Source: Bispira polyomma (lineage: Eukaryota). From it: DNA of 64,000 nt. Each line of letters opens with the position of its first letter. Within the stretch, counting starts at the first letter, position 1. The stretch is taken from assembly GCA_965649765.1 (NCBI GenBank), contig OZ287755.1:31496001-31560000 (forward strand), given 5' to 3'. The notes below the pieces were generated by a model. The model had not been told where the DNA came from, did no database searches, and saw only the letters and a list, made by a program, of their open reading frames with translations. Made by a program: the position numbers and the translations under genes. Of the stretch, positions 3,885-43,190 are shown one piece after another.

Positions 3885-4944
3885 ATGGGACGAGGAAAAC
3901 GTACAATTTCAGTTATGTTACATGAGTGTTTGCGATGCAAAAAATAAATTTACAACTCTACCACAAGGTTTTGAGGGACAAGGACATCCTATTCCAGCTC
4001 CTCGACGAAAAAATCAGGCAGAAATACAGGCTAACATGTTTCCTCGACAGATACCGTCATATCACGTTTCAGCCGGGACAGTCACACTACCCGATGCATC
4101 AGATGCAAACAACACATCTTAACAGAGGACAACTCATGTTCCAACAGCCACCCAGTGCGTTGCCTTATCCACATCATCAGATGTCATAAGAACTTCAAGG
4201 TAGTCAACATGACATAGTTCCATCGACAGAAGTGCGATGACAGTCGGCTCGAATTCAAAACGAAGTCACAGCACGACTTCATCAACTAAAAGCTATAGCG
4301 ACAGGAGACCTACTACAAGGTAAGTCGCTTGGCAAACGCAAATCTGTCAGGTATAATGTAACAGAAGTGTGCACCTCCAACCCTATGTTTAAATGGCCTA
4401 ACAAAGACAACCTAACAGGAGTTAACAAAAAACGGATTTCGTTTGATGACCTCACACTTGCTCAGTTTACGTCCGGTCAAATACACAATATTCCAGAAGT
4501 AGCAAATCCCACAGTAGTGAAAGCCATGTTAAGGCAGTTAGGTGACACAATTCGTGACGCGTCTTACATCTCTTGGCTGGTAGCCAAAGGAGCCTATGCA
4601 ACTAATGTGCATGATATAGAAGAGGGAAGGTTAACGTGGCTAGACGAGAATAACTAGATAATGAACAGGCTTTCGTATTCACAGGCATTAATGGCATCTT
4701 TAGCGACTTCACTCACGACAAACAACAACTCAAACAAAGTCAAACGACAAAATCGCGCATTCCTTGCCGTCAAAAGGGTCAATGTAACCAGGAGGGGGAC
4801 CACGAAAATGCTACAACAATCTTTAAACATATATGTTGTAATTGTTTTAAGGTTAACAAAAGGGAGAACTCACACCCAGAAAGTAAATGTTTCAAGTTAT
4901 ATGGCAGACCAACAGTGACAACTACTCTGGCACCAGGTCAATAG
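3885..4944 (+). pseudogene. E2 gag
   Basis: Starts MGRGK. LLQGKSLGKRKSVRYNVTEVCTSNPMFKWPN aligns with E4 gag. C-terminal HICCNCFK...HPESKC; TAG at 4942-4944; several frameshifts. Confidence 0.8.
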
Positions 4945-7363
4945 GAAATAGGACTGCAGTACAGGACAGCAGCAGCAATAGGACAGATTAATAAAAAAGT
5001 GTGCAATAGATCACATATGTTTGTATACAGGGGTGACAATAATGAGATTTTAGAGCATAAAATAAGGACGAAATCAAAGTTAAATGTTAATTTTGATAAT
5101 TTAGATAATAAATTTGATAGGTATCAAGTGAACAATGATCTAGAAATTAGAAATAAAAATCTAGTGAAACATGAAAATAATGAAATCTATGAAAAAATAG
5201 AAAATGTAAATGACACTGATATACTGACAGAATGTCAGAAGACACCATATGAGTACAATATAGTAGCAAAAAGTGTAGATATAGAAGACAGTAATACATG
5301 TGTACATAATGATATTGAGATGGACAATAACAGTTGGTACATTAATGTGCAACAGCCTAAGAACAGTAATCACCAGAATGTTCTGGCAGACAATTATGTA
5401 AATAGTGATAGTGATGTAATATTATATTATTTAATGTGTAGAAATGAACCCCAATATACAGGGGTGTATAGAGTAATAGTAAGTAATAACTTACATGTAT
5501 TTTAGCAGGTCAGATGTAAAATAACTACAATCTCGCCACTAAATTATGTGACATCCAAGACACAAGTGAATGTGATGGTGACAGACAACAAAAACAAATA
5601 CAAGAACAAGAATATACAAGTGGGACACAGAGATGGCCTGACTTGAGACAATGATAATATAATTAGAGAAAACAGAAATAACAAACGACAAACGACAAAA
5701 CAGACAGTTGAGTTAAGTCACACACATGAAACAAATGATCACGTGACAGGGGTGATAAACTCGATATTGAATGAAATAGACAACGAAAATTGAAAGTTAG
5801 AATCTTATGACATGACAAAGGACAATAAGGTAAATAACAGGAGTAAGACAGACGGAAATGATAATAGATTTTATGGTTTTATTCCATTGAGCAGTACTGA
5901 TTTTATTTTCAAGGGACCGAGTGTGGAACCAGTAGAGATGAACACTTATGATAAATTGCTGAAGGTATGTGAAATTATTAAAAGCACAGGACAGGAAAAT
6001 TATAAAGAAGCGACAACCCCAATACAATCAGGATTAAGAATAGACAATTGGAAGAAATACCTGGCAAATTATAAAGATCAACAAGTGCTTTAGTATATGG
6101 GATTCTAATTCTTAACTTGTCACACCCAGCTGGTTCTTCAGTAAATGACCACACGTATAAAAACATTTAACTTAAGGTTACCAACAATCGACCAGATAGT
6201 GCATGATATACAGACATTAGATGATGCAATGTTAGCAAAGGTCGACATTGCGCACGCGTTTAGGAACCTAAGGATTGACCCGTATGACAGTCTTAAACTC
6301 GGTTATCAATGGGAAACTCAAAATTATATGGACCTTTGGCTTGACGCACGGAACGGCCGTGTTCATGAGAGTTTTGGATGCAGTGACACACATTATGTGT
6401 CAACATGGTTTTAAAGTGTTTAATTACATTGATGACTTCGTAATTTGTGAAACAAGGGCAAAGGTCACTTAAGCTTATGATTTCTTACAAAAAGTATTGG
6501 GTGAACTAGGTCTACCGATAAACAAGAAAAAACTCGTACCCCCTAACAAAAGAGTGACATGTATGGGAATTACAATCGATATTGACCAAGGGACCTTAAG
6601 TATAAAGGACAAGAAAACTAGAAACGATATATAAAACATGTGAGAGTTTTTGTGACCTTAAAAAAGTCACTAAAACCAAATATCAGTCACTATTGGGAAA
6701 GTTACTGTATATTAGTCTATGTATAAAGCCTTCTCGGATCTTTATGAATCGGATGCTACATCTGCTTATAGAGAACACACAAGTCAAAAAATGATATGGC
6801 TTACAAACGAGTTTAAAAAGGACCTAAACTGGTTTTTACAATTTTTGTTTACATTTAATGGTATGACAAGCTATGTTGATAAAAACACAATGTTTAAAAA
6901 GTTATTACACATAGACGCGTGTTTACAAGGGATTGGCGGAATATCTGATGGAAAAGTGTTTACTGCTCCCATTCCTCCTTGTATAAAACAAGACTTGTCA
7001 ATTGTACATTAAGAAATGCTTAGTATTGTTATAGCATTTAAATTATGGGCCAATGAGTGGAAAAGCAAGACGGTTAAAATTATTAAATGTGACAATGCTG
7101 CTGTTGTGGCTGTAGTGCAGTCTGCCAAAAGTAGGGACATATATTTAAGCACATGCTTAAGGAATCTCTGGCTAATATGTGCAAGACGGGACATTGAAAT
7201 AATTATTGAGCATATACCTGGAAAAAAGAATATATAAGCTGACATACTATCGAGATGGCAGATATTAGGACAAAATGTTAAGATAATCAAGAATATAACA
7301 AGCGAGACTTTTAGCATGGAATTAGTTACTATTGACATGTTTAAATTAAATCCTGACATTTAA
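4945..7363 (+). pseudogene. E2 pol (RT + RNase H), disrupted
   Basis: ORF fragments 5812-7237 carry RT/RH motifs. Ends FKLNPDI*, homologous to E3 LEIDNNI* and E4 FNLDCHI*. Internal RT deletion near 6100. Confidence 0.88.
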
Positions 7364-7369
7364 TTTCAG

Positions 7370-8339
7370 GTACTACAGACAGGATATAACCTCTAGTACG
7401 AAAAACACTCAAGAGATTACGGGACTGTCATCGACCGAGAACGAACAGACAATACCACAGCCACATAAGACTCTACATGGCTTTTATTATTTACTACAAT
7501 ATTATAGAAACTTTTAGCATCGGTAGAGTTCTGGCCTTTCTCGAATTCCTACAACAGAAAGGGTTATCTTATAAAGTAATCAATAACTATCTGGCTTCTA
7601 TAAGATGTTATGCAAAAAAGCTACACATATATATTGTTCAACTATATGATCCAAGGATTGCTTTATATAAAAAATCTGTCATGTTGACATAAGATTTTAA
7701 ACCAACTCCCAAAGGAGTTTTTGACATCAACCAATTACATACAATTTCAAGACAATACCAGTTAACTCACTTCCCAGAACTGTATCAAATGACTTTCTTA
7801 TTTGCATTTTTTGGATTCTTGAGAATCTCCAACCTTACACCATTATCACTCTTGGGATTTGACTCAACACGACACATTACAAGATCTGATATACTATTTG
7901 AATCACCAGGTCTACATCTAGTTCTAAAATGGTCTAAGACTAATCAGTCAAGATCACAACACAACATAATGCAGTTACCAAGTTTAAAAAATCCCTGGCT
8001 ATGCCCAGTTACAGCAGTAAAGGCAGTATTTCAAAAATATCTTTACCTTTACATGCTCCATTACTTGCAAATCTAAAGAATTGGGGTAAATGTACTACTG
8101 ATTCACAATTAAGAATAATACTTAGATATACTTAAAAAGAGTCAAATCCCTCACACTGGTCATTCTGTTCACTGAAGGTCGGGGGCCTTCTTGGCCTTCA
8201 ACAGTAATGTTAAATTGCAAAACATCCAGAAAGACGGATGTTGGAAGTCTGATGCGGTTTGGGCATATCTGGAGTCTACATCTCACGCAGCTTCAATCAT
8301 ACCAGAAACTTTCGCTGCCATCATCCCCCCCCTTTCTAA
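7370..8339 (+). pseudogene. E2 tyrosine recombinase, disrupted
   Basis: FFGFLRISNL (catalytic R), LKWSKTNQ, LCPV, degenerate HxxR box, WKSDAVWAYL (catalytic Y). Confidence 0.88.
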
Positions 8340-8685
8340 TTTTTGGGTTTGGAATTTTTAAATTTTAAGAATTTCTTAAAATTCTTGTACAGTTGTAAAA
8401 ATTAGAAATTGTAAAAATAAATTATCCTAAATAGCATCAGACATTTCCTAACAGTAACACATGTTAACCTGAAACATACTAAAATAACTTCACCAGCATC
8501 TGACCTCAAGGTCAACCAATGTGACCTAAGAGGTCAAACATCTGTATCTTTGGAGACTGTCTAAATATGCAAAATAAAAAAAATTAATGGACGGTACCTA
8601 ATAAACAGCCTTACATATAAAAAAAAACAATGAGACTAACTTGACCACCTCTATAGTTAATATTGTATTTTGCATTTTTAACGAG

Positions 8686-10495: not shown

Positions 10496-10539
10496 ATGAC
10501 TAAATGACACTTATGTAAATAATATCAATAACTCCATAA

Positions 10540-11116: not shown

Positions 11117-11423
11117 TAACTTTCATAATATAAAGTATCAACTAAAAAAATGATTTACCCTTTGAACATCATTTAGAGTGATGAAAAAGTGAGAGCTCAT
11201 CATGTTTTTTTGGTAACCGAAGGTTAAATCTAATTACGCCTTATTAAGGTTCAATAAGGCGGGAGGAAATAAATTTGAGCAAAACCTGTTTTTTTTTACA
11301 TATGTCTTTTTTTCATATAAGCAGCGTGGTAGTCAAGAAAACTGTAAAAATGTTCTTAGTGAGTAGCAAATTGATAAGAAATATCTGTACTGGTGTTGTT
11401 GAAGCTGACGTGTGGTTAAATGT

Positions 11424-11870
11424 ATATAGACAGGTATATGCTTGAATTAGGTCCACTTAGAGGTAATCATATACACATATGATGCTTTGACATCAGTATA
11501 CAGACAAGTATATGTTTAGATCAGGTCCACTTAGAGGTGAAACATATACACATGGGATGCTTTGACATAAGTATACAGACAAGTATATGCTTTGATCAGG
11601 TCCACTTAGAGGTTAAACATATACACATGGGATGCTTGACATTAGTATACAGACAGGAATATAATTGGATTAGGTCCACTTAGAGGTAAAACATATGCAC
11701 ATGTGATGCTTGACATCAGTATACAGACAGGAATATACTTGGATTAGGTCCACTTAGAGGTAAAACATATGTACATGGGATGCTTTGACATCAGTATACA
11801 GACAGGTATATGCTTGAGCTAGGTCTACTTAGAGATAAAATATATGCACATGAGATGCTTTGATATCATT
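11424..11870. repeat. Minisatellite, about 74-bp unit x6
   Basis: aggtccacttagagg recurs at about 11449, 11523, 11598, 11672, 11746 and 11821. Confidence 0.92.
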
Positions 11871-12195: not shown

Positions 12196-13850
12196 TGCAC
12201 AGCAGGCCTCTTTATGGGACTGCTAGTTCAGTCCACCAGCCCTACTATTTATTGCCATCTTAAGCCCTAGCGAATGCAATCCCATTATCCCCTCCATCTG
12301 TCTATCCAGTTCCAAACCAATCAAATTAAGTACACTTGTTACTTGTAGCTTCACGTTGCTATTCTCCATTTAATATTTGGATTTTCAACTGTCAACATAT
12401 AGGACAGTATAAGAGGTTTTATTTTTTTCTTTATTTTACATCACTTTTAACCTGAATTGTTTTTAGTACTGCTTATACGTTTGTGCTGCACAGCATGGGG
12501 AGAACAAAGAAGACATCCGTACAGAGTAGCAAGAAACAGTCTGGGAAGAAATCAACAAGAACGGGCAGGTTGTCAAAACGGTGGGGCACTTGGGCTCAAC
12601 TGTTAGTGTACTGGACTATTAATCTCAAGATCCATGACAACACAGGATCCAATCCAAACAGTAGCAACCCTCTTTATAAGTTTACAGCAGAGCCATGGAA
12701 TTTCTGTTGTTTACATGGTGGAGTTCAGTATTCCATATTGCATAGTGGACGTAGTGTACTTAAGTAAACATATGCATGCTTGAGTAAGATGGTCCCTTTA
12801 GGTCCCGTTAAAATGTAAAAGTTTTGTGCTACTCAAAATTTAAGTTTGTTTCGGCTGATTTTATTAAACGGTTGGTGCATTCGACAAACATAATTTGAAA
12901 CGGCTATTAAAATGTGTTAGATGCGTGACAAACATGTACAAATGTGTACAGAACGTGTACAAAACAACCCGTACAATGATTTTTTGTTACTTTTTAGTTA
13001 CCTTTTACACTTTTTTCTTACCATTTGCTTACATTTAAAACAAAGCGAACATAAACACGAACATGCTCAGTGTGACCCCAACATTAATGTGGTAGTGATA
13101 TAAGACCTGAGGTCAGGTCTTCATGAGAGAGAGGCATGTAATATCCCTGTAAATCTGTAAATTTGTACTGGATTATTAATATCAAGATCCCTGTAAATCT
13201 GTAAATTTGTACTGGGCTATTAATATCAAGATCAGTGACAACCTATGTTCTAATCCCAGCAATAGAAAGCTTCTTTATAAGTTTACAGCGGAGCCAAGAA
13301 ATTTCTGTTGTTTACATTAACCTTCATGACCAGTTTAATGAATTTGCTATACCCGGTTCCTGTACTACCAAACCCTCTGACCCTTGGACCATCAATGCTA
13401 AGTACTACAGCCCAGGAGCTGATCCACAGTTCCTCTGAAAACATGGCTAAAATGTTAGCCATTCTACGGGACTTAGAGATGTCCAACGCTAGAATTACAC
13501 AGCGTCTGGACAAATTCTTTTTTATTGAGATATTTAATATCACTCTAGTACCTGTTTTGGTTATATTGGGACGTGTAGTTGGAAACGTTGGAGGAAACAC
13601 TGCATACAGTTGATCAAGGTACTGCACTGAAACCAGCGGCCCACATTAAAGAACTACCACCTTTCCCACATAGGCATCGACGGGAGTTGAACCCATGCCA
13701 GCTGATCTCAGAGGTGAGAAACCAGTGACTGTGAAGCGCAATGCTTGCTAACCACTAGGCCACGGCGGCCCCACGTCTGGACAAAGTTGAGCAGAAACAG
13801 AACAATGCCAGCCCTAGAACGACCCCCTGTTACACCATAAGGGACGGTAT
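12196..13850 (+). mobile_element. E5: truncated YR retrotransposon (5' end and gag remnant) interrupted by insertions; 3' limit approximate
   Basis: 5' motif tgcacagcaggcctctttatgggactgctagttcagt, CCAAT box near 12317, MGRTKKTS at 12495, coiled-coil LAILRDLEMSNARITQRLDK|VEQK split by a SINE. Confidence 0.75.
13515..13772 (-). mobile_element. tRNA-derived SINE (family A, variant head) inserted in E5 gag
   Basis: Reverse complement of the 3506 SINE; TSD cgtctggacaaa at 13503-13514 and 13774-13785. Confidence 0.9.
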
Positions 13851-13989: not shown

Positions 13990-14158
13990 ACAAAAGACTT
14001 TAGTCTATAAATATCTCAAATCAGGTTTCCCTCGATATTTCAGTTCTTACTTGTCTCCCCAATGATTCTTCTCAAATGATGCTCCTAAGCTGTGGAATGA
14101 TATTCGCACTGCCTCCTTACTAGCCAGTTTTTAGAAAAAGCTCGAAGTCTACCTTTGT
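13990..14158 (+). mobile_element. L2-type LINE 3' fragment split by E3 (continues at 19230-19300)
   Basis: FSNDAPKLWNDIRTASLL...KKLEVYLC; removing E3 restores LEVYLCSKDFPH*, matching the typical L2 C-terminus (K-x-YLF-x-KA-F/Y-P). Confidence 0.7.
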
Positions 14159-14433
14159 ACAAGGCAATGCCCTAGTGTTGGTGGGTTCAGTTCGGGGTAC
14201 CAGACTACTTGTCATGCCTGGCTGCGTTTCAATATAAAAGGGAGAGAATTTTGAATCTCCCTCCTTTTCATCAACCGTCAGCAGAAGAACAACTTCAAAA
14301 TAAAATAAACTGGAGGGTTTGGCAGAGAGTTCATGTTTTATGTTTTACATTTTTACTACTTTTACAATTTTAGTTTCTTAATGTAACCTCTCTCATAATG
14401 CCACAAATTAAAGATTATAGTTGTACGAAATGT

Positions 14434-15423
14434 ATGGGAAAGCACGCTAGGCCAGTTGGTAGCAAATGTACTTGGGTGTTACACGAGGAGTCCACTTCCG
14501 AGGATGAGATAGAAGGGGCAGTTTCGGAAGCTCCTGACAGTCTGGCCGCTGTTTCTAGTAAAATACTGTAAAAATTAGAAAGTATGGGCCAGATGATGGA
14601 ACGACTTGATAAACGTGTCTTGCTCACGGAGGCGGCTCTGAGCATGGATTCTCCTAAAACTCAGGCCAGTTCGATTTCCAACACTAGTCCAGTGATTGCT
14701 TCGGTTGAAAAGGTCAATACTGTAAGTGACGATAATGTGGTTCATAGTATCGAGTTCTTGAAGAAAAATACCTGCATACGGACCCAGGTAGAGCAGCGAC
14801 TAGTCAAGCTTAAGGAAATTAATGAAAACCCGAAAAAAGGTAAGATTAAGTCCCAAAGAGGCGGGGGGGGGGGGGGGGGATCGACGTGCTTGTCAAGAGG
14901 GTAGTGAAATGGCTCCCAAAATCATGTCCTGTCGGGCAATTTTAAGACACGTCCGAGTTATGATGATCTGTCCCTTAACCAGTGGGTATCTGGGTTTACC
15001 AGAATAATTCAAGACGAGAAAAAACCAGAAATTAAGGAAATCATGTTAGATTATATAGCAGGCTTAATGGATTTTTCCTAGGAGGCAGCCAAAGCCTGCC
15101 ATGCAGTTGTGTTGACCACAATGGAAATAGACAAACTTCAATGGACGGAAGTCGAAAAATTAGACAGGTTGAGGCGAGCTCATGCCCAGAGACACGTCGT
15201 TAGTAGTAGTAGTAGCTATAATAGCACTTGTAGTGGTAGTAGTAGTAACAAGACTGTGGGGATGGGGAAGCAGGGCTCGGCAAACTGCAAGTTTTATCAA
15301 GAAGGCACATATAAATTTCCTTCCAGCCATAAAAGTGGAAATACTTTCTTCAAACATGTTTGTGAAAATTGTGCTAGGGCCCATAAAAGCAGCAACTGCA
15401 ACAGAAAATTGGCAAAAAACTAG
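14434..15423 (+). pseudogene. E3 gag
   Basis: MGKHARP start is in frame with ORF 14584 (one internal stop). A poly-G run causes a frameshift near 14870. Ser-rich linker, CKFYQEG...HVCENCARAH...C fingers. Confidence 0.8.
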
Positions 15424-15449
15424 GAGCCTACTGCAGCAATGCAGTGGGC
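15414..15449 (+). other. Candidate -1 programmed ribosomal frameshift signal
   Basis: A AAA AAC in the gag frame just before TAG; 5-nt spacer; 10-bp stem gcctactgca/tgcagtgggc with a GCAA loop; the -1 frame is the 15444-16523 ORF. Confidence 0.65.
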
Positions 15450-17795
15450 GACCAAAAAAGTTCTAGTAGAGAATTCTACAGGACAGGATTTAAAAATTTC
15501 GAATTGTTAGACATAAATGTTGCTACAAAAATGTGTCAGTACAACAGAGGTGTACTTAGAAACCAAAGTTATAGTGAAATGGTTAAAAAACCTTGGCAAG
15601 GTATTCCTCGGGATGCAAATCAAGTATGTTCCAATATTGTGTATAACACAGGTAAGCAGTCAGTACATATTGGCAAAAGTCGTACCTTTTATAGGAACAA
15701 ATGCAAAAACCCTATTGTCAATCTCAGGCTAGGGGGAAGCACTGCTGAGGGCAAAGCTGGGTATAGGCAGAAAGGGGGAGTAAAAAGTTGTGCCAAATTT
15801 AAAATGTGTGAAGCCAGTCCAGTATTTGTACACAATAGGTTTAATTTGTTAGCTTTCTCAGATTCGACTGACTCTGTCGACAGAAATACTGCTATGCAAA
15901 CAGATCAGATGAAAGAAAAACACAGTAGCCCAGTGCGACACAGCACTGTTGGTACACGTGCTAGTACCTCGCATAAAAAGAAACCTGTGAATACCGATGA
16001 CACTGTAGTCAGTGATAAGTATGCCTTAGAATTAAAGCAAAAAATCAACAAAAAAGAGCTTTTAAACAGGGCTAAAAATAACCCCACATATTGTGAATGG
16101 CGCAGCCGAAATAAAGTTCAGTATGGCTTTACCCCAGTATCGGACTTGGGTTATAGAGTGTGGGATAGACAAGCCAGTGATGATAGTTCTGATATTTTAC
16201 AAATGCATAAGGTATTGAGAGCTGATGGTAGACAAAATTTTAAGGGCTTGCAGATACCTGTTAAGTCACAATTAAATCATGAAAAATGGTCGCATTATTT
16301 GAAGTCATATTGGGATTGGCAATTGCCAATATTAATTAAATATGGTTTTCCGCTTGATGTGATTCGCGAAAACATCAGCCAATTGGATGGCTCCAACCAC
16401 AGCTCAGCCAATGACTTTCCAGAACACATAGACATTTATTTAAATGAAGAATGTAAACATGGTGCTAAATTTTGCCCCATTTCGAAACCCACCAATAGAA
16501 AAAAATGCATTTTTCCCCTATGATGACGCGTAATAAGTCCAGCTCCAATAATAGGCGGGTCACTGTCGACCTTAGCTGGCCAATTGGTGAGTTGGTTAAT
16601 TCGGGAGCCTTTTCAAATAAATATCTTGGTACAGAATTTATACTATCTTACCTTTCAGTTGACAATCTTACCAATGAAGTCCAAAAATTAGGCAGAGGTT
16701 GCCAGATATTCAAGGTTGACATAAGTCGCGTATTCAGGCACGTGCCTATTGATCCAGGGGACGTGAATTTATTGGGTTTAAAGTGGGATTCCTATTATCT
16801 GAATAGATCTCTCCCTTTCGGCTTTCAGAACGGATCCACTATTTTTCAGAGAATTTCGGACTCGGTTCGATTTATTATGCTGCAGGAGGGATTTCATATC
16901 CATGCCTACATCGACGATTTTTTATGTGTCGCTCTTCCAAGTAAAATCACTGCTATATATGACAGACTCCAAGTTCTTCTGAGAGAATTAGGTGTTACTG
17001 TCAGCCCCAAAAAGCTAGTTCCCCCTGACACAAGTGTAGTATGTTTAGGCATTTTAATTAATACAGCGGATTTTACCACTTCAATTCCTGTTGAAAAAAT
17101 GGACGAAATAAAAAATTTATGTCAAATGTGGGAAAATAAGCAAAGTTGTACTAAAAAAGAAATGTATCAAGTATGCCCGGGTGTACCTTAACAGAAGGCT
17201 CCAGTTGTTAAGAGATAGCCATAGCAAAAAAAAAGGTTCTTAAATACTACTGAATTCAAAAGGGATCTGGTTTAGTACATTCATGCAGCAGTTCAATGGT
17301 ACTAGTTTTTTGGCCCATAAACCAATTAATGCCCAGGTTAAATTGGACGCTTGTCTGACTGGCATGGGGGGGGGGGGGGTTATATATGATGGGTAAGTAT
17401 ACAAGTTAACTGTCCCCCAGCATATGTCTCAACATAATATTGTATATTTGGAAATGATTAATATTCTTGTGGCTATAAAATTATGGGCTAGTAACTGGCA
17501 AGGTAAAAGAGTACTATTTAAGTGCGACAATCAGGGTGTGGTCAGCGTTTTGACCAGTGGTCACACCCAGGACCCGGTTCTTGCAACTTACACTAGAAAC
17601 ATATATATGTGGGTCAGTCAGTTCGACATAGATATTAAAGTCATTCATATACTTGGTGCCAAAAATAAGGTCGCCGACCTCATGTCCACGTGGGATAAGA
17701 CAAAAAACAATGTGCAATTGTTGCATAAATGGGTAGGCCCTGTAAAATGGCTTCAGACTGATGAAACGTTGTTGGAAATAGACAATAATATTTAA
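15414..17795 (+). pseudogene. E3 pol (RT + RNase H), entered in the -1 frame
   Basis: IKYGFP, VDLSWP, KVDISRVFRHVP, LPFG, YIDDF, DACLTGMG, CDNQGVV, NKVADLMS. Confidence 0.9.
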
Positions 17796-17819
17796 AAGAA
17801 TTTTATGTTTTATTTTCAG

Positions 17820-18740
17820 GAAGTAATCCTACTGAAAACTTGCTGACAAGTCTGGCTTGTAAGAGAATGCACAGTGCTTTAGCTGCCTCTACCACCTCTG
17901 CTTATGATAGCATGTTCAGGCTCTTTACAGCTTTCAGCATTTTTATGGCTTGGCCAGCCTCTCAGGTGAATGTGTTCCATATTCTTACCTTTCTAGATCC
18001 TAGGATTTCTTACTATACCAGGGCTCTCTAGGTTAATAGACCACCTCAGGTTAAGTTAAAGAGTGTGTTCAATATACCTCTCATGTTGAAATTAGTAGAA
18101 AAATGTGAATCCACCTATGGGTCTTATTTTTAAAGCTATGTATGTGACAAGTTTCTTCAGTTTTCTTTGTCTATCTTATTTGTGCCCCCATTCCAGGGCG
18201 GCGTTCTCACCCCTTAAGCATTTGGCCAGGGGGGATGTTTTGTTTAAACCTGGCTATGTCCTTCTTTTGGTTAAATGGAGCAAGACTTTGCAGACTAATG
18301 ATGCAGTGAGGCTTTTATCATTACCAGCTCTCCCCTCTTCTAAATTGTGCCCAGTTAGGGCCTTAAAAGCTGTATTAGCCTTGTCACCCCCTGGCCAGAA
18401 CGCCTCCTTATTTCAGTATAAAATTAAAAGTTCTTGGGTTCCCATGACGGATAATCGGGTAAAACTCCATCTTAAAAATGTTTTGGCTTTAATGGATTTG
18501 CAGCATTCAAATTTAACCTTTCACACCTTCTGTCGTTTAGGGGCCACGTTCGCGTTCAATAACAATGTTCGTCTACAGGACATACAGCGGCATGGCACCT
18601 GGACGTCGGATTGTGTGTGGCGAAATATTACCGATTCTGCTCAAGTAGGCACTCAGGTGGCTGATTCCTTGCTATGGCCCTACAAACTACCCCCTAGAAA
18701 GATTTGGGCTTGGTGGTTTGGGACATCTCTTCTCACCTGA
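17820..18740 (+). pseudogene. E3 tyrosine recombinase, disrupted
   Basis: SALAASTTSAYDSMF, VKWSKTLQ, LCPVRAL, FHTFCRLGATFAF, HGTWTSDCVWRNI (catalytic Y appears replaced by N). Confidence 0.9.
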
Positions 18741-20263
18741 AACTTTAAACTTTTATCTGTAAATAATAAAGAAATACCAAAGGTCAATAAATAAATAAAG
18801 AATCACAGAACTTGGGGCATAATGTCACCTGATTTTGGGGAGTACATTATGTACTCTTACATATCACTTATAAAAGTTTCAAAATTCTAATCTCTCTTCA
18901 AAATCCTAAATTAATCGACTTTAATTTAAATCTTCAATTCTTAAACTGAACTTTTTAAATTCAAGTTAGGGTGACCTCTTTCCTCTTCAAAATTATGGTC
19001 ACCTTAACTCCAGTTTGAGAACTTAATTTATGGTAACCTTACCTTCTTAACTTATACTCACCTTAGGGTTACCCTAAACTTATCTTAACTTAAGGTCACC
19101 TTATGCCCCTTCACAAAAACTGTATATAGTAGTTGTCTCACATGCTAGTCTACTAATAAACTTGTGAACCGCAGCCTTTTTCTGTGTTACATATTAAACT
19201 CTTATAACTTTGCTCTGGTTCCTGGGACCTGTAGCAAGGATTTTCCACATTAGCCTTCTTAATTTTTCCGGCATCTCCATGGTCCCGACCCCGTCCAATG
19301 GCTATATGAAATTGTTGAATGATTATTACCAGTAAACTGTAACTTTTCACTATATTTATTAACTAAAACATCATATCTGCAAATTTCAAACTTACAACAA
19401 GTGGACTGAAGCTATCACCAAAATCTCAGATTTAACACCGAAACTAGGCCAACTCTGTGTGTGATTTTGGACAAAAAATACACAGTGGAACTTGGTCCTC
19501 TTTTTAACAGTATTTCCTAGTGTGTGATTAAAAGTACAGATATAAACAGATTTCTCAGAACCTCTGTCAAGGATGTTCAACAACCAAAGGACACACTGAA
19601 GATGAACAGAACAAAATGTACTTAAAAAAATAGCTAAACAGTTCAGTTATAAAATTGGTAATAAATTTGTCAATAAATCTGTGTAAATCATGTGCTTAAT
19701 AGTCTATGACCAAAGGACGGAAACATACTTTAGATATCAACTATTAATCAATACACAGGGTTCCTTGCACCACAAAAACATGGAGCTTGATTATATTTTT
19801 GAGTTTAAAAAAGCCAGATTATAGAAAAAACACTAATGAATTGCTCCTACACAATAGGGATATCTTCCATATTTAGGGCTATTGTCCCCACCACTTAAGT
19901 ATGTAAAATAACAGTAAAGATTTGCTACTCTGAGTAGCACAAGTTATGCAGTGCCTCTCCCTTGACATTGCCTCCTAATTTGACCTTGTAAAACATTGAT
20001 GAGAGCATGTGGGGTATATCAGTTTATTTTCAAAGTTAGTTTAAAGTTTTTCTGGACAAACTAGAGATTTAAGGCCTCCATAGCTGAGTTTAAGGTTAAC
20101 CTAAGTTGAATAACATTTACTTTTAACTTTTAATTTAAGTGCTTGCTTTAAGGTGGACTTTAAAGTTTTGCATTAAAGTGAAGTTTTACGTTAAAAATAC
20201 AATACAAAAAAATAGTAATTATTGTACCAGGCTTTATTATTATTATTATAAATTTTTAACATG

Positions 20264-23296: not shown

Positions 23297-24709
23297 ATGG
23301 AATATACTGGAAACAGCACAACTAATGTGTCATTATTTTTTAACCAAAGTGATATAAATAATTATACCAATGACAACAGCAGTAATAATGTCTCCCTTGG
23401 ATACCATACGGATGACAGTGAGAACGAACAAGGGAGTACCTTCTACGACAACAACTTCACAGATATATCTAATATCATATTAAAGTATATCTCTACCCCG
23501 GTGTCAGTGTTTGGAATCCTAGGCAACCTGTTGACATTGACCGTACTGACCAGAAAAAGCCTTAAGATCACCATGATGACCATGGAGAGGAGTTCCCATG
23601 AGGGACTCACAGCTTTGTCTGTGTCTGATCTTTTTTACTGCATCACCATCTTACCAGTGGTCACCATGGGCAAGAGCAAGAACAACCCTTACTTCCCCAT
23701 CTACCTGGAGAAGAACTTTGACATCATCTACAACGTCTACCATAATGCAGTGGTGAACGTCTTCCTTGCGACCAGTACCTGGCTCACCGTCATGATGGCA
23801 GCACAGAGGTACCTTGCCATCTGCCATCCAATCAAAGCTCGACAGCTCATCGATTACAAGTACACTCGACTCATCATTATATTCATCTTCTTCTGCGCGC
23901 TGTTCCTGAACATCCCCAGGTTTTGGGAATGCGAAATTATTAGCGCGCCGTGCATGAGACTAGGGAAAGAGAAGTATTGCGCTAAAGGACCATATATTTA
24001 TGCGGCTATTGCAGGACCATTGAAGCGCCACAAAGCTCAGGATATTTACAATATGGTCTTCTTCATTCTGTCTATATTCCTGCCACTCATGGTCTTAACG
24101 TTTTGCAATGTGAACCTCATCAGAACTTTACGGAAATCTACACGACTGCGAAGAAATTCGAGTAGCATTGGGTTCCGTTCAGATTTGAGCGATGGCACAC
24201 ATCGCATTACATTAACACTGATTATCATAGTAATGATGTTTAGTTTGCTGGTAGCTCCAGGAGAAATCTCAAACTTTGTCTGGTCTGCTTTGGACGACAA
24301 CTCACAAGCTACTGCTGTAAGAGTAAATTTCAGTGCCGCGGTCCTGGACCTTCTTCAGCGGATAAATTTCTCGTTCAATTTCATCCTGTACTGTGCTATA
24401 AACACTCACTTTCGCAGGACATTGTATCACCTGTTTTTCTGCAAGTGTAAATCTTCAAACAGCCGTAGCAGCAGTGCGACAAAGAGGTCATTCCTGAACC
24501 TTCCCACAGTTGTCCAGAATAATAGGTCCCATAGCATGGATGCCATGTTTATGACAAGTGATAACAGAAACTCCATCAAGGGAAGCAGCAGTTCTGGTAA
24601 CAGCAATGTCATAACACAGGGTGACTACAGAATGGTGTTGTTAAAAACCAAAAGCTGTGACCAAATGGAGAGAATACACACTGGAATTGTACTAGACAAA
24701 CATTATTGA
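23297..24709 (+). CDS. Class A (rhodopsin-like) neuropeptide GPCR, FMRFamide/sex-peptide/myosuppressin receptor-like, single coding exon, 470 aa
   Basis: N-terminus rich in N-x-S/T. TM1 GILGN, TM2 LSVSDL, TM3 AQRYLAICHP, TM4 LNIPRFWE, TM5 IFLPLMVLTFCN, TM6 FSLLVAP, TM7 NFSFNFILYC; helix 8 FRRTL then FFCKC; Ser-rich tail; AATAAA at 24836. Confidence 0.93.
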   Translation: MEYTGNSTTNVSLFFNQSDINNYTNDNSSNNVSLGYHTDDSENEQGSTFYDNNFTDISNIILKYISTPVSVFGILGNLLTLTVLTRKSLKITMMTMERSSHEGLTALSVSDLFYCITILPVVTMGKSKNNPYFPIYLEKNFDIIYNVYHNAVVNVFLATSTWLTVMMAAQRYLAICHPIKARQLIDYKYTRLIIIFIFFCALFLNIPRFWECEIISAPCMRLGKEKYCAKGPYIYAAIAGPLKRHKAQDIYNMVFFILSIFLPLMVLTFCNVNLIRTLRKSTRLRRNSSSIGFRSDLSDGTHRITLTLIIIVMMFSLLVAPGEISNFVWSALDDNSQATAVRVNFSAAVLDLLQRINFSFNFILYCAINTHFRRTLYHLFFCKCKSSNSRSSSATKRSFLNLPTVVQNNRSHSMDAMFMTSDNRNSIKGSSSSGNSNVITQGDYRMVLLKTKSCDQMERIHTGIVLDKHY

Positions 24710-27436: not shown

Positions 27437-27687
27437 ATTGAATTTGGATATTTAACGTCCACTCTAGTACCTGTTTTAGGTTATATTGGAACGGGTAGTT
27501 GGTAACGCTGGAGGAAACACTGCATACAGTTGATCAAGGTTCTGCAGAGAAACCAGCGGCCCACGGTAAGGAACTACCACCTTTCCCACATAGGCATCAA
27601 CGGGATTCGAACTCACGCTGCCCAGAGGTGAGAGACCAGTGATTGTGAAGCGAAATGCTTGCTAACCACTAGGCCACCGCGGCCCCC
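27437..27687 (-). mobile_element. tRNA-derived SINE (family A)
   Basis: TSD attgagcacatga at 27424-27436 and 27688-27700; empty site in copy B near 31053. Confidence 0.92.
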
Positions 27688-29007
27688 ATTGAGCACATGA
27701 TTAGTGTTATATCTAATCTCTCAATGTGCTCAGCATCCTAATAAAATAAAATATAACAGTAATCAAAACATCATAGGTTGAGCAGAGAAATGATTACACT
27801 GCTGTGAACAAGTGTTGTCTTTTTTAAAAAGACATTGGCGCACAAGTGTGACTGACACCCTTAAGTTTGGCCAGGTCCATTGCTTGCAACCAATCCATGA
27901 AGGCGTTACATATTTTTAAGATGGCCGTACCCTTTTCAGAATAAAATCAGTTTCAGGGCGCTTGATAAAAAAGTGCCCAGTAAATCTGAAGGAACATTTT
28001 GCTTAAGCAGTTTTAGCCCAAAATAGTGGCCAAGCTCAGACCAGTGGTTACATCAGGTTGTAACTCGTCAGGTCTGTTCAGTTAAATATTCTATGTAAAC
28101 CACTGTCTTAACACTGTTTGGACAGCTGCATGTACTTGGGGGATGCCCAACCCTTTCATAGGATTGTCTGGCATCCATTACCAAAAAAATACTATGCAAG
28201 TGGCATGTATATGTCTTATCTAGAGGTGAGCTTGCAACAAATTTTGTCACAGGAATATCACATTTGACACGCGTTAAGAGTTTATCTTCACTTTCAAAAA
28301 ACTTATGTCATAACAATAAAGTCAACATATATTACAAAAGAATGAATAACTTTTAATAAGCAACCAGTTTATTTAAAAATTATTGGTTACATTATTGTTT
28401 TGTGCACTGCATAATAGGCAACACTATGCAAATGACAGCAAAGATAATCTCCACTCAGAGTTGTTTTTGCAGAGTTCATTAACTTTATTTTTAAATGCAT
28501 GAGTCAGCTGAGCTGATATAATGATCTAATTGAAATACACATCCTTGAATATAACTTTGACCTTTACTCTAATGCGTCATTAAAAATACTATAATTTCTT
28601 GTTTTTTTTTGTTTGTTTAATGACTCCTCTCACACAGTAAAGGAGTGACACAATGTTTTACATTGCTTTTCAATATGAAATATGATATTTAATATTTCCT
28701 ATCATTTCTGTGTTACATAAAAACAATATCCTGTATTAAATATATTTGTCATGTCTTAAGGCTAAATTGTGCAAATTGACAAACTCATAAATTTTGATAG
28801 AATATTCATAAGGGAAGTAATACAAATAAATGTAAAACCTCCAAAACACCAAAGCCAAATCTCCATACATTTAAATCTACTTTGTCCTAAATATAATATA
28901 TGTTGCTAAGTGTTCTTGCAACCTATCATTGGGAACATGATTTATGCGAACAAAGAGCTTGTACTGGGAACCTAGCATTGTAGAATGACGGAATTATTTT
29001 CCCCTTA

Positions 29008-35420: not shown

Positions 35421-38206
35421 TAACATTAGTAGAGAGCCAAGTTTTCTGAGGGATTATATCATGTTGTGTAATGGATATTTAAGCAGAAGAAACCTGACTT
35501 TGTTAGATAAATCACTGTGAATCTCCCCACAGACCCTGCTGCATTTCAAGTACAATATTGATGATCAATGTTAATATAGGGCAATTGACACTTTTTACCC
35601 TTCACCATCTCTGTGAAAGCAGCACTAGTTTTTATTTCTTTTTACATTGAAGCATATGAAGTAATTTTAGCTTATATAAGACTGTTTCTAGTATTGAAAA
35701 ACAATAGTGAATAAACCCATCATTAGATACAGATATGGTTTAGTTTGTCTTTAGCTGCTCTTTTAATATGTCTTATGTTATATGATGGCGAGTAGTTGGT
35801 CAAGGTTTTCTGCTCTGCAAACCGTCTTCAGCAAGTCTATCACCAAGTTTCCCAACATACATGCCAATGCTGAGACTCAAACCCACGGCCACAGAGATGG
35901 GATACCAGTATGTTACCACTACTGTACCACTGAGACCCCGCAGAGACTGATATAACACAGCTGTAATGTTAATAAATGCACATTTATAAAATTTCAAGTT
36001 TGTTTAGTTTACTTTGTCTTCATGCCACTCTTAATATTTCACCTATATTATAGAGGGCTATATAGAAAAGTAAAAGCAACATGTGGACAATTCCTATAAA
36101 GCTGACATCCCACGTAGGTGACAAAATGCACAACAGTGTTCTGCAACAATTTGTTGGTGATTGTTTTCATTGCTTGTGTGCATTTGTCTGAAAACCCCCA
36201 AATAAAAGGGGCCTTTCAACGCCAATGTTGAGATAGTATGACGACACCCAGGAGACAATGGGGAAACCTTTAATATTATGGCTTGTCACCTAGCCAATTC
36301 GGCTATACAGAATGGGGCTTCAATGAATGACTTCAGAGAACTGGACACCGTACGTACGATATATGTATGATAAACTTTGCTTGTTCCTTGCATGTTTCAG
36401 AGTCAATGAAGTTACTGTTATTTGCTAAAAAAAGGGCAAATTTTACATAATTTGGTTCCCAAGAAAGGCAAATTAGTTAAAAATTGTTTCTGTCTCTTAA
36501 CCTAACTTCATAGGGAAATTTTGAAAGACATAGCATCAAATGTAGTACAGGCATATGATATTGTACATAATTAAAGTTCCTCATTAATATCTTTTAGTGT
36601 ATTTTACTAGTGATAATATGTACAGATTGCGTGCAGGCAAAAAATCATTATTTAATTTCTGAGATTATTTACAGATAGAAAGACAATACATTTTTATTAG
36701 TGCTGGAGGTGCTGTCATGTTTATCTTCCTACTATATTATTGGCTCTAGGTTCAGAAAGTTGTAAAAAGTGTCTCCTGAGACAATCTCTCTATCAGGTAC
36801 TTATTGTCATTGTCAATTTGTAATTCTTCAGAAAATCTAATTTTATTTACCATTTCTTACTAGACTGAGTTTTGTGTTATCGAAAATACTTTTACTTTTA
36901 CTGATAGTATGCATGGCAATGGACAGAGCAATTACCATAAGCAAAACTGACACCGCATATAAAACCCAAAAAATATCATCTTTCCATTGAGTCTGTGGTT
37001 GTATGTTGATAAAACAAAAGCCGTACACAATATTACAACTTATGGCCAACCTAAAAGTACTTGAATTATTAAATATCATTATTTGAAAAGATTTCCTTAT
37101 ATTTCTTGTTGAAGAGAACATAACAAACTGCCGTGTCAGATTTGTTGATTTTTGCTTATGGTAAACACCCTGTCTCTCGCCGACAGAAAACTCTGTCTTG
37201 GTCTAAACTAGACAGAATAATCTGTCCCCATTTAGCAAGATTCCTTGCTGTTATTTTACCGACGGACTTATGAAAAGGGACAGAACGGCTAAACATACAT
37301 CCTAATGCAACTGGCATATTCGACAAAGTGTTTCCACAATATTTCTTTTTCTAGGTTTTACTCTTATCTACAGTATTTATAATTAGCACTGCCAAGGTAT
37401 TTGTCAGTGTTAACTTTCTCAACAATGATTATTGCAACAATGTTTTAGTTCCTCATAGGAAAAATGTTTATTAATTAAAGCTACTGAGCAAAAGTCATAT
37501 TAAATGTGCTCCTGTGACATGCCATTCCACTTAAGGTCATTTAATTTGTTTTGAAAAAAATGCAAGATTAATGATTTTGATGTAATTAAGTAAGTTGAGT
37601 CCCTTCTGCCACTTTTTTACTACATTGTAGTTAGCTGTGGTAATGTATTTGAATTGTAATTTCATTTACTTTTTTGCAAATATGTATCAAATGGTAATTA
37701 CTTACTAAATGACATAAAAAGTTTTGGTTGTTTTATGCTCACAGACATATTTATCCTATCTTGATATATATGTGAACACTAATATACTACATGTACTCAC
37801 AATCGAATAGACTGAAAGTACATTATAATTTGGACAATCTATTTCTGATGTCTATATGTGGACAGGATGTACCAATGAAATTTTAATAAACTTCTGTTAC
37901 AGTTATTTTATAGAAACAAACGCTGAATCAACAGCTTGCAACAGGTAACACTTTACAATTTAAATTTTGTTGGGATTTAAGTCGCTTTGAACTGCTTAGG
38001 TCATACCATGACGGCCAGATTCAATGGTAGTAGAAAGCAGTGTGAACAGCACGACCACTTCAGGGGCCTGCTGCCTCAGTTATAAAGCACGACTTTAAAT
38101 CCTTTTAATAAAGTCTTTTCTTGTTTCACCTTCTGTCCATCACACAATACCTCTAAACCAATCAGCTTAGGACACATGGTCAAACTGTGTATTAGGACCC
38201 ACGCTT

Positions 38207-39008
38207 AGGTGCCATATTGGAAACTCAAACCAAGGAGGTAACAAGTGGAAAAAGTTTTAGACATTATTAATGATTGATATATATACGTGCTTTAATTTTA
38301 GTGTAACTTTGTTTTTAATCAGTATACACACTATGGGACGTACAAAGAAGACACCTGGCAGTGCATCACAGCCTAAAATAAAGACAGCTACAAAGAAAGT
38401 GATCAGTCAGGTATCATTATCCGACTCTGTCGCACGTAATTTGCAAGTTCCTTTGTCTGAAGCTACCCCGAGTAATTCTATGTCAGCCGGATCTGAGGGG
38501 CTATCTGAAGTTATGAGCGTTTTGCGCAGGCTTGAAGCTGTGAACACTTCTATTAACAGACGTTTAGACCAAGTTGAAACTAAGGCCACGTCTTCAACGA
38601 GTGCTCAGGTGCCATATTGGAAACTCAAACCAAGGAGGTAACAAGTGGAAAAAGTTTTAGACATTATTAATGATTGATATATATACGTGCTTTAATTTTA
38701 GTGTAACTTTGTTTTTATAATCAGTATACACACTATGGGACGTACAAAGAAGACACCTGGCAGTGCATCACAGCCTAAAATAAAGACAGCTACAAAGAAA
38801 GTGATCAGTCAGGTATCATTATCCGAATCTGTCGCACGTAATTTGCAAGTTCCTTTGTCTGAAGCTACCCCGAGTAATTCTATGTCAGCCGGATCTGAGG
38901 GGCTATCTGAAGTTATGAGCGTTTTGCGCAGGCTTGAAGCTGTGAACACTTCTATTAACAGACGTTTAGACCAAGTTGAAACTAAGGCCACGTCTTCAAC
39001 GAGTGCTC
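38207..39008 (+). repeat. Near-identical 400-bp tandem duplication of the gag start
   Basis: aggtgccatattgg at 38207 and 38607; I see only one substitution and one 2-bp indel between copies. Confidence 0.95.
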
Positions 39009-39807
39009 TGCATAACGGCCACACGTTTGCTACTACCTCTGCTCAGGCCTCGCCGTTACTACAGCCAGCAGTTCCCCCACCACAGGCTACAGCAGTGCAC
39101 ACATCCCATCAAGAATTTCAACGAGATTGCATAGTACCGAAACTCGACATGCTGAAGTCGATGGCTGACGTGAATACAGCTGTTAACCAGAGATTGGCCG
39201 CCTATGACGCCAGACTTACCCATGACCTTACACAAGGTAAGCACCTATCAAAGCATAGATCTGGGCGATTTAATACAACGGACATCTGCATCCCTGAGCC
39301 ACAGCATCGTTGGCCCAATGAAGGATGTGTAGGCGGAACTGCGAAAAAACGTCCTGCTTACGATGAGCTTTCTCTTTCTCAATGGGCGTCGGGTCAGTTA
39401 TTCAACATTTCACACATTTCTGATATCACGCTTATGAAGCAGATGATCATGCAAGTCACCTACTCATTGAGAGATGCGACATCTCTTCCTTGGTCCGCAG
39501 TTAGGTCTGCATGGGCCCACAATATGCAGGAGATTGAGGAGAACCGGATGGAGTGGGCAGACTCAACTCAGTGGGCTATTAACAGGCTTAACATGTCACA
39601 GATGGCGCTAGTCAATTCACACGTCGCACAGGGTACTCAGAAACCGAAAGTCACCTGCAAATATTTTAATGTTGGATCGTGCAGTCACGACAGTGATCAC
39701 AGCCAGTATCGTCATATTTGTTCTCATTGCTTAAGCACCTCAACAAGGAGAGTAATCATCCAGAGTTTAAGTGCGTGAAGGCTAACAGTGCTAAGGCCAC
39801 AAGTTAG
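38735..39807 (+). pseudogene. E4 gag (nearly intact, one frameshift in the last finger)
   Basis: 347-aa ORF MGRTKK...CKYFNVGSCSHDSDHSQYRHICSHC. The shifted frame continues KHLNKESNHPEFKC (matches E2) to TAG at 39805-39807. Confidence 0.9.
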
Positions 39808-42420
39808 GGAGGTGGTCGACTGCCTGGACCACTGCCAAACACTGATGTTGACTCTAGTTGTAAAAAGTATAAGATTGCTAACAGTAATTATAAGTTTGGA
39901 AGAGACGATAGTACTAGAAGTGCTTACAAAATTGATTCTAATTTAGAACTAAGTACTTTTGGAAATTTAAATGATAATATTATTCTCAGACATACAGACT
40001 ATGAATGTAACAATGTGTATAATGATTTCAGGAATCTGTTGATGTTACTAATCAACAGCTGGACAGTGTTGCTTATGGCAAAGTCTCTGGTTTTAATACT
40101 GACACCTCATACCTTTATTATAGTAATCAAGGGCAAACTAGTAACACGGGGATGGGAAGAAATCATATAGAAGGTGATAATTCTCAGAAAGGAAATATGA
40201 TTCATAATGGGCTCTTACAAATTCCGAACCTTAATTGTGTCTGTCGTGTGTCAGTGTTGGAACCACCTAGTTGCTTTGATAAATGCTGTTTTCAGATATT
40301 CAGCTGTAGGGCAAATGCCCATTTTTCCAATCAATATTATGTACACATATAATACTTGGGTTACTATAGATATGAACACTAACAAAATTGGTGGTTATAC
40401 CGCTAACCAGTTGGAGGAAGCCAACTTAGTTTGGTTGAATCACAGTAAAGACACGGCATGCTTCAACGACCACGGATGTGATTATACAGTTCACATCTGC
40501 AACATAATTGATAAGCTTACAACTGTCAATTGTCATAATGACATGCATGCAGAGCATGTTAACAAGGGTGAGATTACCACCAATAAGGTGACCAAGGCTA
40601 GCATCACACGTACTCCCGTTTATGGGTTAATGGACAAGTCGGGCGACTTGCTTATTAACGCATCCTCTTCTTCTGAAAACAATCAGATTAAGGACATTTA
40701 TGATCACAACAAAACAACAGGTTTTATTAATTAAACTTTCTGATACAAGTTTTGAATTCGTGGGTCCTGACAAGGATTCGGTCCACATAAAATCTGTACA
40801 ACATTTATGTGAAATTGCAGAGATCATTAGGAATACAGGCATGCCAAATTATCAACAGGCTCGTATACCGATTAAGTCGGATCTGAATATTTCAGCTTGG
40901 GAAAGAATTACTCATGATCATACTGATAAATTGATTATGCAATATATCAAATTCGGTTTTCCACTGTCTAAACAGGAACCTAGTTTATTGGTCAACACAA
41001 ACATTACTAACCATGTCTCAGCCTTGCAACATCAAGAAGCAGTAGTAGCTTACTTGACTAAGGAGAAACAAAAGGGAGCTTGTTAGGCCCAGTTGCCAAT
41101 GTGCCAGATAAAAACTTTCACTGCTCACCTTTACTAACCAGACGAAAGGACACAAATAAAAGCCGAGTAATCTTGAACCTTTCCTATCCTCCAGGTCGGT
41201 CGGTTAATGATCAAGTGGACAGTTGCTTCGATGGTACTACCTTTTGTCTAATATTGATGATATTACTTATGCTATTCAAAATACATTCAATGCAGTTATG
41301 TTCAAGGTCGATGTCGAGTGGGCATTTCGTAACTTGCGCGTTGACCCTGTCGACGCAGTGAAATTTGGAATTACTTGGAACAATGAGTACTTTTTAGACG
41401 CTGCCGTGGCGTTCGGATGGGCACACGGTAGTGCTTCTTTTCAGCGATGTTCCGACATAATAGTAGACTATATGAGTAGTAAAGGGTATCAACTGTATTG
41501 CTACATCGACGACTACATTTGCATAACCACAGAGACTAAGGCAGACAAGGGTTTTTCAATATTATGTGAACTTATGGACGATTTAGGGCTTCAAATGAAT
41601 CCAGACAAAGTATGCCCCCCAGCAGATCACATGACATATTTGGGTATTGACATTGATATCACAAGCAGTACAATTTGCATTACCAAAGACAAAACTGAAG
41701 AAATACACTTAGTATGTAAGGAAACAAGACAGAAATCTTGGCTATCTCGTTCCAGATTTCAGTTTCTTCTTGGCAGGCTTTTATACATCCACAAATGTGT
41801 AAAGCCTGCCAGGTGTTTTATTAATAGATTATTGGCAGTTTTTAGAGCATCCCCTGGTGCCAAGAGATTTAAGGTCACAGACAATGTGAAACAGGATCTG
41901 GACTGGTTTATTAAATTTTTATACCAATACAATGGAATTACATATATCAACCCTAGATTCATACAAGCAAGCAAAGAATTACACCTCGATGCCTGCTTAA
42001 CAGGCATAGGGGCATTCTGGGGCACTGAAATTTATCATACACCCATATATAACATCTATGGCCAACCTTTACATATCACTCAGCTTGAAATGCTAAATAT
42101 TGTCATTGCACTTAGGGTGTGGGGCCCATCAACAAATTACAATTCATTGTGACAACATGGCAGTGGTCTTGGTGGTTCAGACCGGTAAGACTAAGGACGC
42201 TTTTCTTGCTGCATGCATTAGGAACATTTGGCTTCTAAATTCTATACACGACATTACACTACACGTTAAACACATTAAGGGTAAAGAGTACATATTTGCT
42301 GACGCATTATTGCGGATATATTCTCCACACCCACAGAACCAAGCAGTACTTGATCTCATGGCAAACCATACACTTAGGGAAGTTTTACCACAGTACTTTA
42401 ACCTAGACTGTCATATATAA
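39808..42420 (+). pseudogene. E4 pol (RT + RNase H), frameshifted
   Basis: IKFGFP, ILNLSYP, KVDVEWAFRNL, FGWAHG, YIDDY, DACLTGIG, HCDNMAVV, FADAL. Confidence 0.92.
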
Positions 42421-42426
42421 TTGTAG

Positions 42427-43190
42427 GTGCCACTGCTGCCTCAGCTTCACTGGGCCAGGCTGCTATTCTAAGGCTGGATTCAGCACTACGCCCATCCACA
42501 CAAATGGCCTACAAGAACCAGTTCAAGACATTCCTGGCTTTCTTGCATCATGTGCACATGTAGGACTATACATTCAATTCTAGCGTTTCTAGAATACTTG
42601 GTGCAGAACAATTTGTTAACTAGAGTGGTAAATAACTACATTTCAGCACTTAAATTTATGGCATCTAAGTATGACCTTAATGTGCATTTATTTCATCACA
42701 ATGCAGTGGCACTGTTTACTAGAAGTCTCACACATACCTCCAAATTTAGACCTGTTACAAAAGGGGTGTTCGACATCAAACACATCTCACTTATCTCACA
42801 AGCGTGTTCCATATTAGATAACCCTACACTTTAGAGGGCCATTTTTCTACTGGCTTTTTATGGGTTTTTGAGAATGTCAAACATTGCTCCACACTCAAGG
42901 TCAAAATTTGACTCTTCTAGACATCTGTTACGACAGGACATAATACTAGGCCCACCTGGTGCCCATGTAATAATCAAATGGGCTAAGAACATGCAGGACA
43001 GGTCAAGCTCTCATGTGGTCCAGCTCCCTATTATTTCAGCTCCACACGTTTGTCCAGTAAGAGCTATTTCCACACTTCTTAGGTCAAGAGATCTTTTACC
43101 CTCACAACCTTTGTTTGCTACCTCCTTGTGGTCATATCTTCAGTCTACATCACAAGCCACTTCCTTTTGCCTCCATAATCCCTGCATCTA
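42427..43190 (+). pseudogene. E4 tyrosine recombinase, with internal deletion
   Basis: SALRPSTQMAYKNQF, FYGFLRMSN, IKWAKNMQ, CPVRAI; jumps from QPLFAT to WSYLQST and lacks the HxxR region. Confidence 0.88.

Follow-up and report, generated by a model that had tools for sequence, protein, structure and literature searches.

How is a recombinase translated when its reading frame lies behind pol and no conserved ATG opens it? The question is raised by a stretch of 64,000 nucleotides (nt) from Bispira polyomma (assembly GCA_965649765.1, contig OZ287755.1, positions 31,496,001 to 31,560,000 of the forward strand), called the window below, in which four divergent tyrosine recombinase (YR) elements, E1 to E4, lie within 44 kb. 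E2, E3 and E4 are dead copies of a large family of Ngaro-like YR retrotransposons, each of them broken by frameshifts or stops somewhere in gag, pol or YR. Judging from the genomic sequence, we consider it very probable that these Ngaro-like elements make YR from a spliced RNA without the 3' half of gag and without pol, giving a fusion of the N-terminal part of Gag (Gag-N) to YR.

Donor and acceptor sites

The original prediction placed donors at the same gag Gly-Lys codons of E2, E3 and E4 and acceptors shortly behind the pol stops, and all six sites are found exactly there, on the forward strand. The exon end CAAG of E2 is followed by GTAAGT (4320–4325), and the predicted intron of 3050 nt (4320–7369), which takes in the 3' half of gag together with the whole of pol, ends in TTTCAG (7364–7369). 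The corresponding sites of E3 are AAAG followed by GTAAGA (14840–14845) and TTTCAG (17814–17819), enclosing a predicted intron of 2980 nt (14840–17819) that contains the reverse transcriptase (RT) as well as RNase H (Pfam RVT_1 and RVT_3); those of E4 are CAAG followed by GTAAGC (39237–39242) and TTGTAG (42421–42426), enclosing 3190 nt (39237–42426) with the 3' half of gag, including its Cys/His finger, and pol (RT and RNase H). All three donors occupy one column of the gag alignment, and the acceptors share one column of the YR alignment. The distance from pol stop to acceptor, given as 6–24 nt in the original prediction, is 6 nt in E2, 24 nt in E3 and 6 nt in E4. The splice phases match as well (phase 1), because the donor follows the first base of the Gly codon and the last G of the acceptor opens a codon of the YR frame. 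Joining was also expected to rebuild a Gly codon: this would be so in 72 of the 98 copies counted below, whereas the others would have Asp, Ala, Glu or Val at the junction. Only a decayed gag remnant of E1, homologous to the donor region, lies in the window (218–547, reverse strand); the GT noted at the homologous position (431–430) is kept, but the AAG after it and the rest of the donor are lost. The 8 kb past the window edge showed no YR start. A tandem array of 81 nt units lies in the E1 gag frame (639–881).

YR queries against the 1.03-Gb genome gave 7321–7823 first-look candidates per query. We fetched 100 copies, most of them selected for the length of their open YR frame, together with the copies nearest to E2–E4; the counted set consists of 99 of these (L034 was left out) and the three window copies, making 42 families at 85% identity, whose representatives form three clades in a quick YR tree. 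YR lies downstream of pol on the same strand. In pol, RVT_1 scores above the Pfam cut-off, and RVT_3 scores above it in E3 and L126 and below it in L063 and L041; pol ends about 35 residues past the RVT_3 match, and no methyltransferase family is found after RNase H at E ≤ 0.1 in any of three long pol frames compared with Pfam. The L063 pol also has some 450–500 residues before the RT without a Pfam match, partly low-complexity and repetitive. The L063 YR matches Phage_int_SAM_1 and SAM_4 above cut-off and Phage_integrase weakly, and the H-x-x-R and distal Tyr regions are visible in the YR of E2 and E3.

Both pairs of split direct repeats, in the order A1-ORFs-B1A2B2 (ORFs, open reading frames), were found in 7 of 14 self-compared copies (L063, L041, L050, L095, L108, L121 and L126), and one pair in L099. 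By these features, as given in passages of PMC4157794 and PMC8547959, the elements appear to be Ngaro-like, the quick YR tree having held no named reference elements. We considered and rejected a PAT-like class, which shares the split direct repeats but has a methyltransferase, and a DIRS1-like class, which needs inverted terminal repeats, an internal region complementary to them and a methyltransferase where these element ends show direct repeats only and no methyltransferase. The spacer between A2 and B2 measures about 450–520 nt in L063 (6258–6734, oriented), L041, L050 and L121, and 66 nt in L126. Exact A1-to-B1 units without A2 and B2 are seen at L062 (713–6033), L109 (3865–6072) and E4 (window 38041–43387), which suggests integration of a one-unit circle or recombination between B1 and B2.

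The donor is conserved far beyond what its codons require. A gag profile matched 90 of the 102 copies, 78 of which are aligned at the donor column, the remaining 12 being gapped there, mostly near frameshifts. GT is present in all 78: 77 have the codon GGT and one has AGT, a change from Gly to Ser that has retained the GT, and the next codon is AAG in 69, AAA in 8 and AGG in 1. Other Gly codons of the same alignment are GGT in only 140 of 542 cases. At two further columns of conserved Gly, GGT is used in 21 of 76 and 27 of 78, so that synonymous sites are otherwise scrambled. Synonymous loss of the GT, one of the outcomes that would have told against a donor, is seen in none of the aligned copies, and the GT is kept in 35 of 35 families having the column.

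The acceptor is conserved as well. The YR start was matched in 99 of the 102 copies; leaving out the processed copy L109, discussed below, gives n = 98. Here YAG is conserved in 97 copies, T at –5 and a pyrimidine at –6 are present in all 98, and position –4 and the exon bases are variable. The signal is conserved in 39 of 40 families. In the YR frame the codon before the acceptor stands for any of seven residues (Ser, Thr, Val, Ala, Ile, Leu or Pro). Its last base is nevertheless A in 97 of 98 copies, compared with 1255 of 3894 comparable codons. The constraint is thus on the bases and not on the residues. The predicted intron measures 2586–4498 nt, with a median of 3222 nt (n = 77).

A probable processed copy and coral relatives

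One genomic copy appears to be processed: L109 (G000:C1, approximately 95,308,297–95,310,504), in which the 5' half of gag runs directly into YR in one frame of 426 codons. It matches L108 over 463–1491 (92%) and then over 4892–6072 (97%); in L108 the donor exon ends at 1491 and the acceptor at 4893, and L109 is without exactly the stretch from donor to acceptor. L109 begins with the first bases of repeat A, runs to the last bases of B1 and carries no poly(A). A pseudogene processed by a LINE (long interspersed element) was considered and rejected: there is no poly(A), and no target-site duplication is evident in the flanks. The simplest reading, and a likely one, is that the enzymes of the family itself copied a spliced RNA and inserted it.

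A screen of frame lengths in five YR searches (150 rows each) yielded L109 only, though broken processed copies would escape a criterion of frame length. Other long frames checked among the fetched copies were rejected as Gag-YR joins, L034 and L104 being pol-YR fusions and L035, L084 and L085 having gag far upstream. The junction region had no match in a set of 5.8 billion, and among the representatives the best 150 of 151 matches to the L109 junction cover the YR part only.

A protein search with L109 led to a soft-coral RefSeq model and from there to further models. Seven of these from four corals, P0092 and P0362 (Dendronephthya), P0250 and P0365 (Porites), P0355 and P0366 (Oculina) and P0377 (Montipora), all consist of a Gag-like N-terminus up to one gag motif, followed by YR; the N-terminus of P0092 has a weak SAP match. 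Three ENA proteins, P0312, P0370 and P0372, are laid out likewise and may derive from processed copies. Folding P0377 as a single sequence (mean predicted local distance difference test score 37.5) was uninformative, and an Atlas lookup named no family for this Gag.

Metagenome sequences gave 80 related loci, 51 with the gag motif, from which 9 near-duplicates were removed. In the part of the tree holding the coral models, a lineage grouping chosen after viewing the data, 7 of 7 lineages have a GTGAGT donor in phase 1 at the gag motif, and in these seven the SR(F/L)Q codons of RNase H carry TTTCAG, TTCCAG or CTACAG. This acceptor is confounded by codon constraint, because it lies inside pol. 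In L197 the donor codon is CGT (Arg) and not Gly, yet the GT is retained; its tree neighbour P0355 from Oculina has His at the junction, as predicted if C, the exon base before GTGAGT, is joined to AT. Homology between the Gly-Lys donor of the window and the Gly/Arg-Glu donor of the coral side was not detected (hhalign probability 0.17%). In the WLWD group (L192–L242) YR overlaps pol by about 100–150 nt. A YCAG-like site in phase 1 lies 20–35 nt past the SR motif of RNase H at most of its loci, but a conserved donor was not found in this group.

On balance we lean slightly towards the view that a Gag-N-YR splice is widespread in animal Ngaro elements, from corals to the present lineage, whether inherited or evolved twice; that the short –1 overlap of YR with RNase H, read as a frameshift site, is an acceptor in these clades; and that the spliced RNA seeds non-autonomous copies without pol.

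Alternative routes to the recombinase

One alternative is that YR is made as a Pol-YR fusion by a –1 frameshift, or by readthrough, at the RNase H end, the splice-like sites being secondary. A passage in section 17 of PMC13003380 quotes a review (Poulter and Butler, 2015) as calling programmed frameshifting probable for the translation of Ngaro YR, and YR is indeed in the –1 frame relative to pol in 63 of 87 copies with assignable pol ends. The other 24 are not, however: 20 are in frame behind a stop and 4 are in +1. When premature pol stops are removed, 60 of the –1 copies are retained, in which pol and YR overlap by 4 nt in 26 and do not overlap at all in 3; a canonical slippery heptamer occurs in the overlap of 3, all of one family, and is missing from 57. 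Pol and YR do share one frame in the coral model P0390 and in two decayed copies, L104 and L034, where the joins look like damage to single copies.

Recoding signals are readily visible in these elements at the gag/pol boundary. Of 40 rows examined, 8 are broken; gag ends in TAG G with pol in frame in 26, and in A AAA AAC and a stop, pol lying in –1, in 6. All 26 TAG G rows belong to the E2 and E4 clades (L032–L129; in E4 TAG GGA at 39805–39810, with pol in frame past the stop), which likely reach pol by readthrough, the gag end resembling the gammaretroviral UAG-G. The A AAA AAC ends belong to the E3 clade (L076–L078, L080, L089 and L119; window 15414–15450, with the heptamer and the following stop of E3 at 15414–15423), where a –1 frameshift is likely; in L077 the heptamer is followed by a hairpin of –16.8 kcal/mol for 60 nt. 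Sister clades are thus unlike in gag-pol recoding, TAG G in one case and A AAA AAC in the other, yet the splice is common to them. As plain signals are seen where recoding is used, their scarcity at the pol/YR boundary counts against a frameshift there, which would also leave the invariant GT, the TTNYAG and L109 unexplained. We therefore regard a Pol-YR fusion as very improbable. The TAG before G at the gag end was also tried as a second acceptor and rejected for its wrong phase and the lack of a T-rich tract.

No better standing can be given to a second alternative, in which the splice is real and merely brings YR close to the 5' end, translation starting at an internal AUG or the Gag part being without function. 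In some families a Met does lie 1–16 codons from the acceptor, and the 5' exon of gag is highly variable in length and sequence. Over 74 open YR frames, however, the first Met falls anywhere from codon 1 to codon 228, a scatter that agrees with the claim that no conserved ATG opens YR; in 6 of them it comes at codon 225–228, past the N-terminal SAM-like domain (Pfam residues 22–92 in the L063 frame). Both sites are in phase 1 in every family counted, and the L109 frame is open over the junction, and both count against this alternative. The weakest proposal, that the conserved bases reflect protein or RNA-structure constraint and L109 a chance DNA deletion or an assembly error, can draw on the conserved donor Gly-Lys, the frequency of internal deletions in these families and the 2-nt microhomology at the L109 junction, but is hardly credible given that synonymous positions are fixed at the donor only, that the acceptor is situated outside pol at variable distances, its amino acids changing freely, that a random deletion would hit both predicted sites with a chance of about 2 in 10 million (3 placements over ~1.6 × 10^7 end pairs), and that none of the listed deletions of the L063 family ends at the splice sites.

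Splicing of YR from mid-gag must itself be weighed against several observations. No RNA junction read was seen; in three runs of unrecorded kind (contigs, even cover) the predicted junction was absent among 15 of 19 joints, which is uninformative either way. The 2-nt AG microhomology at the L109 junction is that of any junction whose exon ends in AG before GT and whose intron ends in AG. L109 is the only distinct processed copy among 153 YR-start matches (duplicates included), with no second one among 150 scored; a DNA search of the L063 family, in which 27 places were scored, gave none either. The family counts share ancestry, so binomial p-values treating families as independent are nominal. 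On the coral side, the models were compared at the protein level, and the Montipora model P0390 joins RT-RNase H to YR; two sister groups are without the donor (present in 1 of 6 and 0 of 29), and the 19 gag frames of the larger group have no other conserved GTRAG column.

Still, splicing and not ribosomal frameshifting is the route we favor for YR, because the splice signals are shared and L109 is without exactly the stretch between them. Neither a conserved ATG nor a conserved pol/YR overlap was found. The central claim of the original prediction, that pol is removed as an intron of about 3 kb and YR made from the spliced mRNA, thus appears sound, with support from the conserved sites, from L109, from the lack of an ATG or slippery site and from the coral models.

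Proposed expression scheme, setting and known systems

The YR exons of the window, all on the forward strand as are E3 as a whole, the E4 repeats and gag exon and the receptor frame given below, have decayed: that of E2 (7370–8361) by several stops and frameshifts, that of E3 (17820–18740) by frameshift, and that of E4 (42427–43200) by a frameshift, a stop and an internal deletion. E3 extends approximately from 14156 to 19239, as matched to its family members L072 and L073. E4 is bounded by the 5' split direct repeat A1 (38041–38255) and the 3' repeat B1 (43201–43387), which match the A2 and B2 repeats of its sibling L034. Its 5' coding exon of gag (38735–39236) comprises the ATG and 167 codons and has a basic N-terminus with predicted helical stretches; the gag start is repeated in a 400-bp tandem duplication, 99% identical (38203–39008). 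Among the elements lies a host gene, an intact single-exon frame of 491 codons for a seven-transmembrane receptor (23234–24706; Pfam 7TM_GPCR_Srw and 7tm_1). A dispersed repeat of about 250 bp, with copies 83–94% alike at 3505–3760, 13530–13772, 27435–27698 and 56365–56703, carries a tRNA-like box, GGGATTCGAAC, and is probably a short interspersed element; one copy lies in the 5' part of E2. Units of 74–75 nt form a tandem array at 11412–11860.

We picture the expression of an intact element as follows. The unspliced RNA would serve as genome and give Gag, as well as Pol by recoding, likely through readthrough of UAG where the E2 and E4 clades are concerned and through a –1 shift in that of E3. 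The spliced RNA would encode about 165–300 residues of Gag-N joined to about 326 residues of YR, the Gag half supplying the start codon. The idea that the helical stretches of this half also bring YR into the Gag particle, the Cys/His finger being omitted, we judge about evenly balanced. The spliced RNA would keep the terminal repeats and could occasionally be copied in trans, giving rise to L109.

The protein to expect is accordingly a Gag-YR fusion of 490–630 residues, as opposed to a bare YR or a Pol-YR, which would matter for the biochemistry of eukaryotic YR integrases and for the annotation of thousands of copies. Spliced and unspliced RNA would have to be balanced, as in retroviruses, offering the host a control point at the level of splicing, and one small element family would use three expression devices: readthrough, frameshift and splicing. 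YR translation in YR retrotransposons has so far been a matter of a guess, frameshifting; splicing is an alternative that is precise and can be tested, and L109 is a likely fossil, in the genome, of the spliced RNA.

No description of the splice appears in the literature searched; it may be mentioned in Goodwin and Poulter (2004), Poulter and Butler (2015) or Repbase, which, like subscription papers and supplements, lay outside that scope. Specifically, the text passages of PMC3783388 have YR in frame or shifted and contain neither 'splic' nor 'intron', those of PMC9210276 likewise contain neither, and no such splice appears in passages of PMC7192593, PMC6681497, PMC4157794, PMC2632668, PMC8547959, PMC12477816, PMC8226300 and 10.64898/2026.05.21.726589. 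The splice would add a new mode of expression to a known type of element; it is well supported by the sequence and runs counter to the standing guess.

With the Ngaro superfamily (order DIRS), as characterized in passages of PMC4157794, PMC8547959 and PMC3783388, the present elements share gag, RT-RNase H and YR in this order on one strand, the A1-ORFs-B1A2B2 repeats and the lack of a methyltransferase; the –1 frame of YR at the RNase H end, frequent in Ngaro, applies to 63 of 87 copies here. They differ in that YR would be reached by splicing from mid-gag and not by the frameshift proposed for Ngaro, and in the spacer of about 480–500 nt often found between A2 and B2, where B1A2B2 is usually drawn contiguous.

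Spliced subgenomic RNAs are familiar from env of retroviruses and gypsy, pol of foamy viruses and gag of copia. As in retroviruses and long terminal repeat elements, the unspliced transcript would be the genome and the spliced one would encode another protein, the intron holding coding sequence; unlike there, the spliced product would be the integrating tyrosine recombinase, fused to about half of Gag and not to a short leader. Cryptons, the intron-containing YR DNA transposons, likewise express a YR gene through spliceosomal splicing, but their introns are ordinary ones, and they have no gag or RT and no unspliced genome RNA to keep.

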